DNA of 64,000 nucleotides from Deltaproteobacteria bacterium (GTDB lineage Bacteria; Desulfobacterota; Deferrimicrobia; Deferrimicrobiales; Deferrimicrobiaceae), in contig CP070783.1 in NCBI GenBank assembly GCA_020346465.1, positions 1,969,402 through 2,033,401 of the forward strand, given 5' to 3'. A model generated the notes under the pieces. The model did not search any database, had not been told where the DNA came from, and saw only the letters and a program-made list of their open reading frames with translations. Shown here one piece after another: positions 2,642 through 49,568 of the stretch. A program made the translations under genes and the position numbers. Position 1 is the first letter of the stretch. The number at the start of each line of letters is the position of its first letter.

Positions 2642-3307
2642 ATGGCCATGATGGAGTTGTCGGCGGTCCGCCGCCGCGGGTCCGGGAAGGAGCTCACCCG
2701 GAAACTGCTTTCCCGGGGGAAGGTCCCGGGGGTGATGTACGGGAAGGGCCTGGAAAGCCGTCCGGTCGAATTCGAACGACGGGATCTGGAAAAGTTCCTG
2801 GGCGTCGCCCGCCGGGGGACCGTCATCGTCCGGCTGAGCGTGCAGGACGGGGACGACCAGAAGGAGTCGTTCGCGGTTCTGAAGGAGACGCAGACGAACC
2901 CCAAAACCGACCGGGTGATCCACGTCGATTTCTACGAGGTCGCCTTCGGGAAGAAGTTCCGCATCGAGGTGCCCATCCGCGTCAAGGGAAAAGCGGCCGG
3001 GATCGAGCAGGGGGGCATCGTCGAGCAGGTGACCCGCAGCCTCGAGGTCGAATGCCTGCCGAAAAATGTGCCGGAGTTCCTGGAGGTGGACGTCACGCCG
3101 CTCGAGATCGGGCACTCGCTCCACCTGAAGGACATCACCTTCCCCGAGGGGGTTGTGCCCCTGGAGAAGGAGATGTCGGCCACCATCGTTTCCGTCCACG
3201 CCCCGAGAGTCGAGGAGGTCGTGACCGTGGTGCCCGAGGAGGAGGCGGCGGCGGCGGAGACGGCGGAAGGCGCCAGTGTGGCGGAACCCGGGGAAAAGGA
3301 GAAGTAG
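2642..3307 (+). CDS. rplY: 50S ribosomal protein L25 / general stress protein Ctc
   Basis: About 221 aa Ctc-form L25 (ELTRKLLSRGKVPGVMYGKG...), acidic C-terminal tail; prs-ctc-pth synteny. Confidence 0.85.
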   Translation: MAMMELSAVRRRGSGKELTRKLLSRGKVPGVMYGKGLESRPVEFERRDLEKFLGVARRGTVIVRLSVQDGDDQKESFAVLKETQTNPKTDRVIHVDFYEVAFGKKFRIEVPIRVKGKAAGIEQGGIVEQVTRSLEVECLPKNVPEFLEVDVTPLEIGHSLHLKDITFPEGVVPLEKEMSATIVSVHAPRVEEVVTVVPEEEAAAAETAEGASVAEPGEKEK

Positions 3308-10537: not shown

Positions 10538-10750
10538 GATCCCTTTACTATATCACCCGCAACGGCGGCGGAAACACCGGGAAACCCCGGGGAAAAGGGG
10601 CAGCGCGGCCCTGCGGGCGCCTCGATATGATACAATGCCCGCATCGTGGCAGAAAGGCGATGGGGTTCGCCGTTAACCGCCCGCCCGGGCTGATGACCCC
10701 TGACCGTGGAGATGCGATTCCCGGCCGGGTGCGGCCTTGAGGAAGAGAGA

Positions 10751-10786
10751 GACAGCGCCCGCCGGATTCTCCCGGCGGGCGCTGTC
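10751..10786 (+). promoter_or_regulatory. 15-bp perfect inverted repeat (GACAGCGCCCGCCGG-attctc-CCGGCGGGCGCTGTC) in the leader of the dynamin-like GTPase gene
   Basis: Read directly: 15/15 complementary arms with a 6-nt loop, no downstream U-tract; it sits about 45 nt upstream of the RBS GGAAGGAG and the ATG at 10830. Confidence 0.5.
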
Positions 10787-10829
10787 GTGTCCGGGGCCTT
10801 TGCGCGGCGGGAAGGAGTGTCCTGGCATC

Positions 10830-12491
10830 ATGGCGGGTCACGGAAGGAATCGGGAGGAGGATCAAGGCCGGCTTCTGGAGAGGCTCGTCGAGATCCGGGA
10901 ACGCTACCGGATGGAAAGCCTCGACCCGCAGATCGAGGCGTGCCGGCGGGGGCTCCGGGATGACGGCGTCATCGACGTCGCCGTCCTGGGCCGGTTCAAG
11001 GCGGGGAAAAGTTCCTTTCTGAACTGCGTCGCGGGGCAGGACGTTCTTCCCGTCGGGGCGGTTCCCGTGACCTCCGTCATCACGGTGCTTTGCTTCGGGG
11101 AACGGGAGCAGGCGCGCGTGCGGTTCCTGGACGGCGGGGAAGTCGTCGTCCCCGTCGGGAAGCTGCCGGACTTCGTGACGGAAGAGGAGAATCCGGAGAA
11201 CCGGAAGGGCGTCGACCTGGTGAGCGTGGATCTGCCATCCCTCCGGCGCTACCCGAACACCCGGTTCCTCGACACCCCGGGCCTGGGAAGCGCCTTTCGC
11301 CACAACACCCGGGTGACGATGGAGTGGCTCCCCCGGGCCGCCGCGACCCTGGTCGCCATCAGCGTCGACCAGCCCGTTTCGGAGCAGGACATCGCCCTCC
11401 TGGCGGATCTTGCCCGCCACACCCCCCGGATCGGGATTCTCCTGACGAAGGTGGACCTGCTGGGCGAGTCGGACCTTGCGGCGGTCACCCGGCACGTCCG
11501 GGCCACCCTCGACCGGGAACTGGGGGCCGGGTTCCCCCTGTTCCATTTCTCCTGCCGCGCCGGGTCGGACCGTTGGCGCGGGCAGATCGCGGAGCGCCTC
11601 CTGGATCCGCTTTCGGTCCGGCAGGGGGAAGAGGCCAGGGCCATTCTGTCCCACAAGATGGGCACCCTGATCCGGGAGCAGCGCCAGTATCTTCAGGTCG
11701 CCTGGGAAGCGGCGAGCGCCCACGATTCCGACCGGGAGATCCTTCGCGGGCGGATCCTGAACGAACGCGTGCGGCTCGCGAACGTCCTCGAGGAGATCTC
11801 GCTGGTTGCCGGCAAGTGCCGGGAGGATGTCCGGGTGAGGATCGAGGAGAGGATCCTGCGCCACCAGGGGACGCTCCTCCACGGGACCCGGGAGAAGCTC
11901 GCGGGGGAGATCTCCTCGTGGCGGGGGAATCTCTGGCGGCTGACCCGCCGGTACGAGGGGTGGGCGCAGGGACACTTCGCCCGGGAGATGTCCGCACTTT
12001 CCGAGGCCGAGAAAGAGGGGTTCTGGGCGCTGCTCCGGGATGTGCGGGACCGGATGGAGCGCCTGGTCGAGGGTTTTCAGGGGCGCCTGGCGGAGAACGT
12101 GCGGACGGCCCTGGGGATCGAGTTCGACCGTTCCCGCGTCTCCCTGGACGTCGGCGTCCCCCCCCTGCCCGACACGTCGTGCGGGAGGGTGTTCGACTCG
12201 CACCTCGACATCGTGTGGTTCCTGGTTCCCCCCTCGGTGTTCGGCCCTCTGATCCGGCGCCACTTCCTGCACCACGTCGGCTTCGAGGCCGAGAAGAACC
12301 TGTTCCGCCTGTCGGCCGTCTGGAGGGAGAGCACCGGTGCGGAGATCGCCAGGCTCGCAAGGCAGGCGGAGAAGGCGATCCGGAGCGAACTGTCGACCCT
12401 GGAGGCCCTTCTTGGCCGGCAGGCCGCGGAATCCCCCGGAATTCGCGAGGCGATCGTCGAACTGACCCGCCACATGGAAGCCGTTCCGTAA
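10830..12491 (+). CDS. bacterial dynamin-like GTPase (large GTPase family)
   Basis: G1 GRFKAGKSSFLN, G3 DTPGLGS, G4 LLTKVDLL, followed by about 350 aa of helical stalk. ATG 10830 with RBS GGAAGGAG is preferred over the ORF-track TTG at 10737, which would put the hairpin inside the CDS. Confidence 0.75.
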   Translation: MAGHGRNREEDQGRLLERLVEIRERYRMESLDPQIEACRRGLRDDGVIDVAVLGRFKAGKSSFLNCVAGQDVLPVGAVPVTSVITVLCFGEREQARVRFLDGGEVVVPVGKLPDFVTEEENPENRKGVDLVSVDLPSLRRYPNTRFLDTPGLGSAFRHNTRVTMEWLPRAAATLVAISVDQPVSEQDIALLADLARHTPRIGILLTKVDLLGESDLAAVTRHVRATLDRELGAGFPLFHFSCRAGSDRWRGQIAERLLDPLSVRQGEEARAILSHKMGTLIREQRQYLQVAWEAASAHDSDREILRGRILNERVRLANVLEEISLVAGKCREDVRVRIEERILRHQGTLLHGTREKLAGEISSWRGNLWRLTRRYEGWAQGHFAREMSALSEAEKEGFWALLRDVRDRMERLVEGFQGRLAENVRTALGIEFDRSRVSLDVGVPPLPDTSCGRVFDSHLDIVWFLVPPSVFGPLIRRHFLHHVGFEAEKNLFRLSAVWRESTGAEIARLARQAEKAIRSELSTLEALLGRQAAESPGIREAIVELTRHMEAVP

Positions 12492-12715
12492 CGGCGGTTT
12501 TCCCCCCCCTCGAAGCAGGCAGGGCGCGGTTGCGCGTCCCCGGCCTCCCCCGGTCCGGTTTCCCCTTGACCTGCCCGGGAGTCCATGCTATGTACAATTC
12601 GTTTTGCTCATTGCGCGCGGGTTTGGACCGATCCTTGACGTGAAAGGTGCGGCATGCGATCTGGGTCCCGGCGGTATTCTCGTCACATTTCATATATCCA
12701 GCACAGGGAGGGGTC

Positions 12716-15220
<2,505 letters not shown>

Positions 15221-48441: not shown

Positions 48442-48501
48442 CGGGACGGGATGCCCGAAAGGAGAAACGGGAGGCCGTCCCGGCCTCCCGGCTCCTGTCG
48501 A

Positions 48502-48576
48502 TGGTGGGCGCTACAGGATTTGAACCTGTGACTTCCACCGTGTGAAGGTGGCACTCTACCGCTGAGTTAAGCGCCC
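48502..48576 (-). tRNA. tRNA-Val (anticodon CAC)
   Basis: Reverse complement GGGCGCTTAACTCAGCGGTAGAGTGCCACCTTCACACGGTGG...GGTTCAAATCC...AGCGCCCACCA has a 7-bp acceptor, anticodon loop UUCACAC and the T-loop; the 48300..48554 track ORF is this tRNA read as protein. Confidence 0.85.
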
Positions 48577-48700
48577 GCGGGACCTCCTATTCTACCTTTC
48601 CCCGCGGGCGCATCAAGAGAATTTTCTCCCGTCCTTCCCTCCCCCCGGCGGGCAGGAGAGGGAGACGCCGCTGGCCGTGCCTCCTTTTCCCCCGGTTGCT

Positions 48701-48708
48701 GGTATAAT
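48701..48708 (+). promoter_or_regulatory. extended -10 promoter element TGgTATAAT
   Basis: Perfect TATAAT hexamer (48703-48708) preceded by TG at -15/-16; about 40 nt upstream of a basic micro-ORF and about 210 nt upstream of tRNA-Sec. Confidence 0.4.
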
Positions 48709-48747: not shown

Positions 48748-48840
48748 ATGACGACGGAACGGAAGCGGGAGATCCGGCGCCGAAGGAAGAGAAAGGAAAA
48801 ATCCAGGAAGCGCCAGCGGAAAGAGGCGGAAAAGAAGTAG
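48748..48840 (+). CDS. candidate 30-aa ultra-basic micro-ORF (MTTERKREIRRRRKRKEKSRKRQRKEAEKK)
   Basis: ATG preceded by the GGAGGACCGAGGGAGCGGAA SD-like tract; 19 of 30 residues are R/K; lies between the extended -10 promoter and selC. Confidence 0.25.
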   Translation: MTTERKREIRRRRKRKEKSRKRQRKEAEKK

Positions 48841-48915: not shown

Positions 48916-49011
48916 GGAAGCGGATGGGGCGCTGGTGGCCCCCCCGGACTTCAAATCCGGTCGGGAGGCAGCAATGTCTCCGGTGGGTTCGATTCCCTCA
49001 CGCTTCCGCCA
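48916..49011 (+). tRNA. selC: tRNA-Sec (selC), anticodon UCA
   Basis: 96-nt tRNA: 5' GGAAGCGG ... 3' CGCTTCC-G-CCA, long acceptor (7-8 bp), anticodon arm CCGGA-CUUCAAA-UCCGG (U33, UCA, A37), long stem-loop variable arm, T-loop GGTTCGATTCC, discriminator G. Start and end residues are like E. coli selC (GGAAG...CTTCCGCCA). Confidence 0.7.
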
Positions 49012-49568
49012 CGTTTGATCGAATATCGGCACCCGCAGTAGTTCTGCCGGTAGATGCCGAGCCGCTTCGCGGTCTCCACGCTCTTGCGGAACCCGTCCCG
49101 TTTCTTCAGGTCCGCCTCGAGGAAGAAGACGCCGGCCTTCTCCCCCTCCTCGCGGCCGATGCGGTTCACCATCGCGGCATCCTTTTTCGGGCTCACCGTC
49201 AGGACCGTGGAAAACGCCGGAATCCCGAGGGACTTTGCCTCGCTCGCGGTCCGCGCGAGACGCATCCGGATGCACGCCTCGCAGCGCTTTCCCCGCTCCG
49301 GCTCGGCCTCGAGCCCCCGGACCGCCTCCTCCCATTCCTCTTCCCCTCCCCGGGCGACCTCGAGGGGGAACGGAACGGGGCCCGCAAGCTCCCGGGTCGC
49401 GGCAAGCCGCCGGTCGTACTCCTCCCCCGGCTGGATGTTCGGGTTGAAGAAGAACCCGGTGACCCGGGAACGCTCCTGCATCGCCGGGACGCCGTGCGAG
49501 GCGTCGGGCGCGCAGCAGATGTGGAGCAGGACGTGGTCCCCCCCGGGGGGCGGCTCTTTCGGCCTCAT
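48951..49568 (-). CDS. queH: epoxyqueuosine reductase QueH (DUF208)
   Basis: LLHICCAPDAS, FFFNPNIQPGEEY, CEACIRMRL and YRQNYCGCRYS QueH signatures; the last 20 codons run antisense through selC and the ORF stops at TGA = reverse complement of the Sec anticodon. Confidence 0.75.
   Translation of the reverse strand: MRPKEPPPGGDHVLLHICCAPDASHGVPAMQERSRVTGFFFNPNIQPGEEYDRRLAATRELAGPVPFPLEVARGGEEEWEEAVRGLEAEPERGKRCEACIRMRLARTASEAKSLGIPAFSTVLTVSPKKDAAMVNRIGREEGEKAGVFFLEADLKKRDGFRKSVETAKRLGIYRQNYCGCRYSIKRGGSVRESNPPETLLPPDRI

Follow-up and report, generated by a model that had tools for sequence, protein, structure and literature searches.

Results

The selC gene and its surroundings

The window, by which we mean the whole 64-kb stretch of DNA analysed, is a housekeeping region with genes for ribosomal proteins, DnaB, MreBCD/PBP2/RodA, an H+-PPase, NifS/NifU and CysRS, and further genes for an O-methyltransferase, an M50 peptidase, two ABC exporters, PurC, pyruvate carboxylase subunits, MetX/MetW and SerC. 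Within it, two convergent genes share sequence. One is selC, a tRNA-Sec gene on the plus strand (48916..49011), and the other is queH, which encodes the epoxyqueuosine reductase QueH on the minus strand (48951..49568; 205 aa plus stop). The shared segment, 48951..49011, is 61 nt long, and in it queH is antisense to tRNA positions 96 to 36. Upstream of selC lie a small Arg/Lys-rich ORF (48748..48840, plus strand) and a divergent tRNA-Val(CAC) gene (48502..48576, minus strand; ARAGORN and Rfam), the latter a conserved synteny anchor. A GC-rich hairpin flanked by U-runs (48468-48490), situated between tRNA-Val and the methyltransferase gene, has the look of a bidirectional terminator. In another part of the window (10647-15220), a fluoride riboswitch (RF01734, 52.9 bits) is located directly 5' of a dynamin-family GTPase ORF (10704-12491), which is followed by the gene for a membrane H+-pyrophosphatase (12644-15220); it is unusual for the first gene behind a fluoride riboswitch to encode a dynamin-like protein.

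ARAGORN called a 96-nt tRNA-SeC at 48916-49011 on the plus strand, with the anticodon tca at tRNA position 36, i.e., at 48951-48953. The Rfam tRNA-Sec model, RF01852, matched 48916-49007 over its full length (1-91) with 74.2 bits and an E value of 2.4e-13. The gathering score of the model is 47, so that the match lies 27 bits above it, and in clan competition the tRNA-Sec model was kept over the general tRNA model. The first-pass annotation had read a Sec tRNA from the UCA anticodon, the discriminator G, the long variable arm and the long acceptor branch; the two programs agree with that reading of a canonical-looking molecule, and the covariance model by which it had proposed to check the call bears it out.

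The gene, GGAAGCGGAUGGGGCGCUGGUGGCCCCCCCGGACUUCAAAUCCGGUCGGGAGGCAGCAAUGUCUCCGGUGGGUUCGAUUCCCUCACGCUUCCGCCA, includes the discriminator G and an encoded CCA. By direct reading, the acceptor helix has eight positions, seven Watson-Crick pairs plus G8.A85, followed by a two-base linker; the first pair is G1:C92, and discriminator G93 (G73) precedes CCA. The D stem is of the extended type expected of tRNA-Sec, having 6 bp (pairs 11-27 to 15-23 and 17-22, with G16 bulged) and a 4-nt loop. The anticodon stem has 5 bp, and the 7-nt loop, CUUCAAA in the Rfam alignment, displays the UCA anticodon. The variable arm, at positions 49-66, has a 6-bp stem and a 6-nt loop, and the five positions of the T stem are a G-C pair, a U69.U83 mismatch and three further G-C pairs. 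Both the long variable arm and G73, which go with SerRS identity, are thus present. tRNA-Sec itself is textbook material. The comparison with the bacterial, E. coli-type 8/5 molecule described by RF01852 is not one of complete identity. The window tRNA shares with it the UCA anticodon, G73, the encoded CCA, the long variable arm, the length of 96 nt, the 6-bp D stem with its 4-nt loop and, in the 8/5 layout, the 8-position acceptor and 5-position T stems. It differs in G8.A85, in U69.U83 and in the bulged D-stem base; further, the gene is not adjacent to selA or selB, and its last 61 nt are shared with a coding gene on the opposite strand.

Across 10 homologous selC genes, a hand-written 8/5 cloverleaf had 93.9 % of its cells paired, and 46-60 % once the 3' partners were slid by 1-3 columns as a control. 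In the 8/5 layout the acceptor/T branch has 11 Watson-Crick pairs plus G8.A85 and U69.U83, and variation among the genes is too low to discriminate this layout from 9+3; the RNAfold minimum preferred a near-equivalent 9+3 branch with a bulged A. Covariation of the cloverleaf is underpowered because selC is nearly invariant across the family, being 98 % identical in 10 related loci at which the QueH proteins show no more than 65-87 % identity with that of the window. The changes that do occur fall in the variable-arm loop, the linker, the two mismatch positions and one compensatory pair, 11-27, which has gone from G-C to A-U in L092. This near-invariance across lineages argues indirectly that the tRNA is functional, and on the structural features given above the window gene is a bona fide bacterial-type selenocysteine tRNA gene.

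Sec machinery and the identity of the tRNA

Essentially all ORFs with a coding-type GC3 signature were annotated against Pfam. No SelA, SelB or SelD domain was found in the major ORFs of the 64-kb window (about 60 ORFs), and a scan of codon-position GC on both sides of every TGA found no credible gene in the window split by an in-frame TGA. The earlier statement that the window has no selA, selB, selD or obvious selenoprotein gene therefore stands. The sole in-frame TGA selenoprotein candidate in the window was rejected, being a shadow frame of a strong plus-strand ORF. The genome paper on Deferrimicrobium/MBNT15 (PMC9386147) makes no mention of selenocysteine; two formate dehydrogenases are mentioned in it.

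The lack of sel and selenoprotein genes within the window would also fit a tRNA that does not work in Sec insertion, namely a selC* tRNA-Cys, an allo-tRNA or a leftover after loss of the Sec machinery. The selC* tRNA-Cys and allo-tRNAs (Mukai et al. 2017, PMC5389517) have U73 and an 8/4 or 9/3 branch, and a CysRS* without the anticodon-binding domain was always found with selC* species carrying A1:U72. The window tRNA resembles these molecules in its tRNA-Sec-like shape, in an anticodon, UCA, that is possible among them, in its anaerobic Deltaproteobacteria-like host and in the cysS gene lying 1.5 kb from selC; in addition, its acceptor/T branch has two mismatches, and the 9+3 minimum-energy fold is like that of some allo-tRNAs. 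It is unlike them in having G73, G1:C92 and, in the 8/5 layout, a 13-position branch. The neighbouring CysRS, for its part, is of ordinary length, 485 aa, with Pfam matches to the catalytic domain and to DALR_2. The margin of 27 bits over the RF01852 threshold also speaks against a tRNA of another kind, and a gene that is 98 % conserved, with its changes in loops and one compensatory pair, does not have the pattern of a decaying relic. We consider a tRNA with a function other than Sec insertion, or with none, very unlikely.

The queH reading frame and its C-terminal tail

The 205-aa QueH product begins at the ATG at 49568 on the minus strand. Residues 13-185 match positions 1-174 of the 175 in Pfam profile PF02677 (E 6.6e-56, 189.6 bits), and the same residues match the Thermotoga maritima structure 7lc5 (E 2.6e-35). 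The cysteine motifs HICCAPD, CEAC and YCGC are all visible in the translation, so that the protein has the full-length domain and the CCAPD, CxxC and CGC motifs of its family (PF02677; 7lc5, 7lc7). In both the Pfam and the PDB alignments the conserved domain ends at about residue 185-186. After ...YRQNYCGCRYSIKR the frame goes on as GGSVRESNPPETLLPPDRI, which includes the peptide GGSVRESNPPETLLPPDR(I), and it stops at TGA 48951-48953. The overlap with selC accordingly consists of the last base of codon R186, codons 187-205 and the stop codon. Because the minus-strand ORF ends at 48951, its TGA is the exact reverse complement of the Sec anticodon, and 48951..48953 is read as TCA on the plus strand and as TGA on the minus strand. 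The first-pass annotation had already noted this identity of stop and anticodon; its overlap of about 60 nt is exactly 61.

That annotation had also suggested that the true C-terminus of QueH may be shorter than called. In favor of a shorter protein, residue 185 is the last of the family domain, and orthologs mostly end at about 186. The best 120 QueH homologs come from MAGs of Deferrimicrobiaceae or "Deltaproteobacteria", and most of them stop 2-4 residues past CGCRYS, typically at 186 aa. In this comparison with orthologs, twelve clusters among the 120 share the tail of the window protein, GGSVRESNPPET[LF][LP]PPDRI; the remaining homologs have unrelated tails of up to 32 residues. Against a shorter protein, reading of the queH frame on the minus strand found no in-frame stop from residue 186 to the TGA at 48951, and a ribosome that reaches the end of queH must therefore translate the 19-residue tail (187-205). 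A shorter product would need termination inside selC, leaving a non-stop mRNA, and no signal for this was found. The identical 205-aa QueH, with selC in the same place, is present in five independent assemblies, which excludes a sequencing or assembly artefact. That the annotated tail is spurious, the real protein ending before selC, is accordingly most improbable. From the reading frame, the 205-aa ORF call is correct and should not be trimmed; as judged from the alignments, the tail is an add-on to the conserved enzyme, which is as much of the original suggestion as holds.

Tails are nothing foreign to QueH. In T. maritima the QueH chain has 192 residues and the alignment ends at chain residue 176; the 16 residues beyond, which like the window tail follow the CGC motif, indicate that C-terminal tails are tolerated. 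The window tail is unlike other QueH tails in being unrelated to them in sequence and set by the antisense tRNA. Between the window and the deep clade of relatives that have the same overlap (see below), the 61 nt of the overlap are 95-97 % identical, as against 72-75 % for the 282 nt of queH just upstream. The differences in the overlap are found only at positions 37, 40 and 42, in the variable-arm loop, where they yield the LL/FP/LP variation of the tail. With the changes confined in this way, the tail sequence is dictated by the tRNA, and by this comparison the conservation of the QueH tail is not due to selection on the protein. Given the variable C-termini in the family and the extra residues of T. 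maritima QueH, a tolerated, near-neutral extension is the simplest reading.

We also considered that the queH UGA might itself be recoded, by Sec insertion or read-through, with a hairpin of the antisense tRNA as a SECIS-like element. An antisense D arm hairpin does follow the UGA, and the frame is open beyond it. The apical loop of the hairpin is ACCA, however, without the G/U expected in bacterial SECIS loops from the bSECIS consensus. Its fold is no better than that of shuffled sequences (z +0.14), and the extension, which would have to be read from the antisense strand of the small ORF and of tRNA-Val, has no homolog among the best 120 QueH proteins. We regard recoding as scarcely credible.

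The queH-selC junction in relatives

On a neighbour-joining tree of the QueH core, 11 of the 12 clusters with the window's tail form one deep monophyletic clade. The remaining one, the window's own cluster, is outside this clade and nested among short forms, and its sister group has the truncated tail GGSVRESPR*. A QueH search of genome contigs gave, among the matches listed, five useful Deferrimicrobium-like loci, the matches being mostly distant Firmicutes QueH. In every Deferrimicrobium-like contig that reaches far enough past queH, selC is found 3' of queH and convergent with it, in the conserved neighbourhood ABC-ABC-M50-queH / selC-...-tRNA-Val-methyltransferase-CysRS. Gene order in these contigs indicates that the tail-to-tail arrangement of selC and queH is conserved across the Deferrimicrobium-like (former MBNT15) bacteria.

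The junction itself comes in several states. The 61-nt overlap is present in L006 and L007, gaps of 51, 68 and 101 nt separate the genes in L009, L092 and L093, respectively, and in L013 the distance is 2.3 kb, with a gene for a secreted repeat protein. The protein, from a Deferrimicrobium MAG (L013 10788-12707), is secreted, has 639 aa and contains a repeat unit of about 90 residues three times in tandem; its gene lies between queH and selC. Several metagenome contigs have similar queH-selC gaps of 2.4-2.7 kb. For L014, the tail obtained by tblastn was discarded as a frame jump, as the translated queH ends 25 nt short of selC.

The 22-nt 3' end of selC was used to scan metagenomes, and 66 of the contigs among the matches listed had both genes. 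In 17 of these 66 the overlap is 61 nt, and the junction peptides are of at least 15 kinds; the CGC-to-tRNA distances are 14, 17, 20 or 26 nt, all in one common frame. Two more of the 66 listed contigs (L102 5380-5450; L112 around 2739-2760, minus strand) have an overlap of 14 nt in another frame. Here the tail is ...RMAEA*, and the stop is a TGA inside GCGTGAGGG, at the acceptor/T-stem junction of the antisense tRNA. In the other contigs listed, queH and selC are 9-2705 nt apart. None of the 66 listed contigs uses the third frame, in which queH would cross the tRNA from end to end in the manner of Shewanella selB.

Repeats of the selC 3' end and a probable origin of the overlap

The 3'-terminal 22 nt of selC (48990..49011), antisense TGGCGGAAGCGTGAGGGAATCG, occur as a direct repeat in L008, L011 and L091. 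In L008, a sister lineage whose QueH is 87 % identical, queH continues into a copy of these 22 nt, followed by CCACGTTAG (giving ...GGSVRESPR*), an insert of about 145 nt and an intact selC that starts with the same 22 nt. Homologous scars with inserts of 326 and 68 nt are present in L011 and L091, respectively, and the left boundary is identical in all three lineages (repeat-flanked inserts of 68-326 nt: L008 5225-5413; L011 4516-4885; L091 2661-2772). Relic and full tails also coexist at similar junctions in the other clade, where LNGVKH-GGSVRESPR* and LNGVKI-GGSVRESNPP... are found among the matches listed. Integration at a tRNA gene classically leaves its mark as foreign DNA bracketed by a direct repeat of the tRNA 3' end. 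One state would be turned into the other either if an overlapping ancestor took up an insert or if the stretch between the repeats was deleted, and this would explain the patchy distribution of the overlap. These junctions suggest that recombination at the 22-nt repeat probably created or removed the overlap.

The inserts themselves yielded only tRNAs in an Rfam search of those beside selC in L008, L011 and L091, and no integrase was seen next to any insert. The L011 insert contains a hairpin of about 90 bp (-210 kcal/mol, z -7.3), and at its right end there is an inverted, degenerate tRNA-Sec 3' fragment. Integrative elements use tRNA 3'-end attachment sites, as do the selC-linked islands of enterobacteria, and the repeats of the selC end flanking inserted DNA in L008, L011 and L091 resemble such sites. 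The inserts are unlike such elements in being only 68-326 nt long, in having no integrase and in the extra inverted tRNA-Sec 3' fragment. A more specific proposal, tentative and in our opinion rather doubtful, is that the last 22 nt of selC act as an active att-like site for small, hairpin-forming inserts that lack an integrase, the queH tails ...NPPET..PPDRI* and ...GGSVRESPR* being the empty and occupied states. If this were true, the coming and going of mobile elements at a tRNA gene would time and again change the C-terminus of a housekeeping enzyme, and the anticodon complement would be a guaranteed backstop stop codon.

Transcription of selC and queH

Directly upstream of selC, the small ORF MTTERKREIRRRRKRKEKSRKRQRKEAEKK (48748..48840, plus strand) encodes 30 aa rich in Arg and Lys. 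Direct reading found an extended -10 promoter-like box, TGGTATAAT (48700..48708, plus strand), upstream of the small ORF and selC. This box was not listed in a -35/-10 consensus scan; a TGnTATAAT or TGnTATACT is present at a constant distance in all loci with the small ORF. Six other lineages share both elements in conserved form, the ORF with synonymous substitutions; the deep overlap clade has neither. Searches of Pfam and NCBIfam gave no family for the ORF, and its exact sequence had no match in the protein collection. Given the conservation of ORF and box, selC is probably in one transcription unit with the 30-aa ORF and probably matures from their common transcript.

In relatives, a 253-255 aa gene without a Pfam family lies between the small ORF and tRNA-Val, and L091 has there an additional MNT/HepT toxin-antitoxin pair (loci with extra genes: L009 10940-11707; L091 3045-4814; L092 3953-4720; L093 3967-4728). 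The window has neither, which makes the space beside selC a variable islet.

A consensus scan for intrinsic terminators of queH or selC found none that was convincing between the two genes on either strand, and for that reason they may transcribe into each other. This lack of a separating terminator would be welcome to a model in which selection maintains the overlap for regulation: queH would be transcribed through selC, and selC through the 3' end of queH, giving mutually antisense RNAs that couple or limit QueH and tRNA-Sec. The overlap is kept in every member of the deep QueH clade and reappears in the window lineage, and Mukai 2021 (PMC8124441) proposes a cis-antisense action for reversed tRNASec overlapping selB, as in Shewanella. 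However, about 70 % of the sampled relatives have the two genes separated, at distances of 9-2705 nt, and close relatives differ in state. The tRNA by itself accounts in full for the tail being conserved. Further, QueH is not known to be linked with tRNA-Sec; Q34 is made on GUN-anticodon tRNAs. As a regulatory device is not needed for any of the observations, we think it unlikely, if less so than a tRNA without a Sec function or a spurious tail.

Discussion

The overlap of queH with selC is, from the comparisons given here, most likely a harmless by-product of gene crowding. What can be held against this reading is the persistence of the overlap through a deep clade, which fits neutrality and fits a selected function equally well. 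In relatives, queH stops 2-4 codons past CGCRYS; in the window lineage neither the spacer nor this normal stop is present, so that queH translation continues into the antisense strand of a genuine selC. The first stop in the resulting frame is the TGA that is the obligatory complement of UCA, and 19 residues (GGSVRESNPPETLLPPDRI) are added. On the reading that we consider likely, the tail would be a selectively near-neutral by-product rather than a functional module, and the overlap would arise from, or interconvert with, the non-overlapping state by recombination at the 22-nt repeat of the selC 3' end. The tRNA gene would be transcribed from the extended -10 promoter together with the small basic ORF, and it would serve in the decoding of UGA as Sec, the sel genes lying in other parts of the genome.

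Overlaps of tRNA-Sec genes with protein-coding genes have been described before. In Shewanella and Ferrimonas, according to Mukai 2021 (PMC8124441), the 3' end of selB overlaps a reversed tRNA-Sec, and selC is nested in, or partly overlaps, selB of Alphaproteobacteria, Dyella/Luteibacter and Nitrospirae. The same work described remnant tRNA-Sec pieces left in the ORF after insertion, and loss of the overlap in close relatives. The window case agrees with these selB cases in several respects. Its queH is open into the selC complement, and the C-terminal extension translated from that complement is conserved among relatives because of the tRNA; some lineages have the overlap and near relatives have lost it, and remnant tRNA-Sec pieces are found in the ORF of relatives with an insert. 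It differs from them in the partner gene, queH, which is outside the Sec pathway, and in frame and extent. The Shewanella selB extension starts with Trp (UGG) and crosses the whole tRNA, whereas the QueH tail starts with GGS and stops at the anticodon complement, so that the overlap is partial (61 nt), with a second variant of 14 nt in another frame. That queH is unrelated to selenium weakens the idea of a Sec-specific regulation and supports an origin as a by-product. The window case thus adds one more example to an arrangement that is known but rare, built on a canonical tRNA gene; it is ordinary and mildly curious.

It provides a second, independent example of a protein tail made from the reverse strand of tRNA-Sec, and for annotation it carries the lesson that a conserved C-terminal "motif" can be the mere shadow of a tRNA. 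The practical consequences are small. The selC sequence marks the organism, a member of the little-known Deferrimicrobia (MBNT15), as a probable user of selenocysteine.
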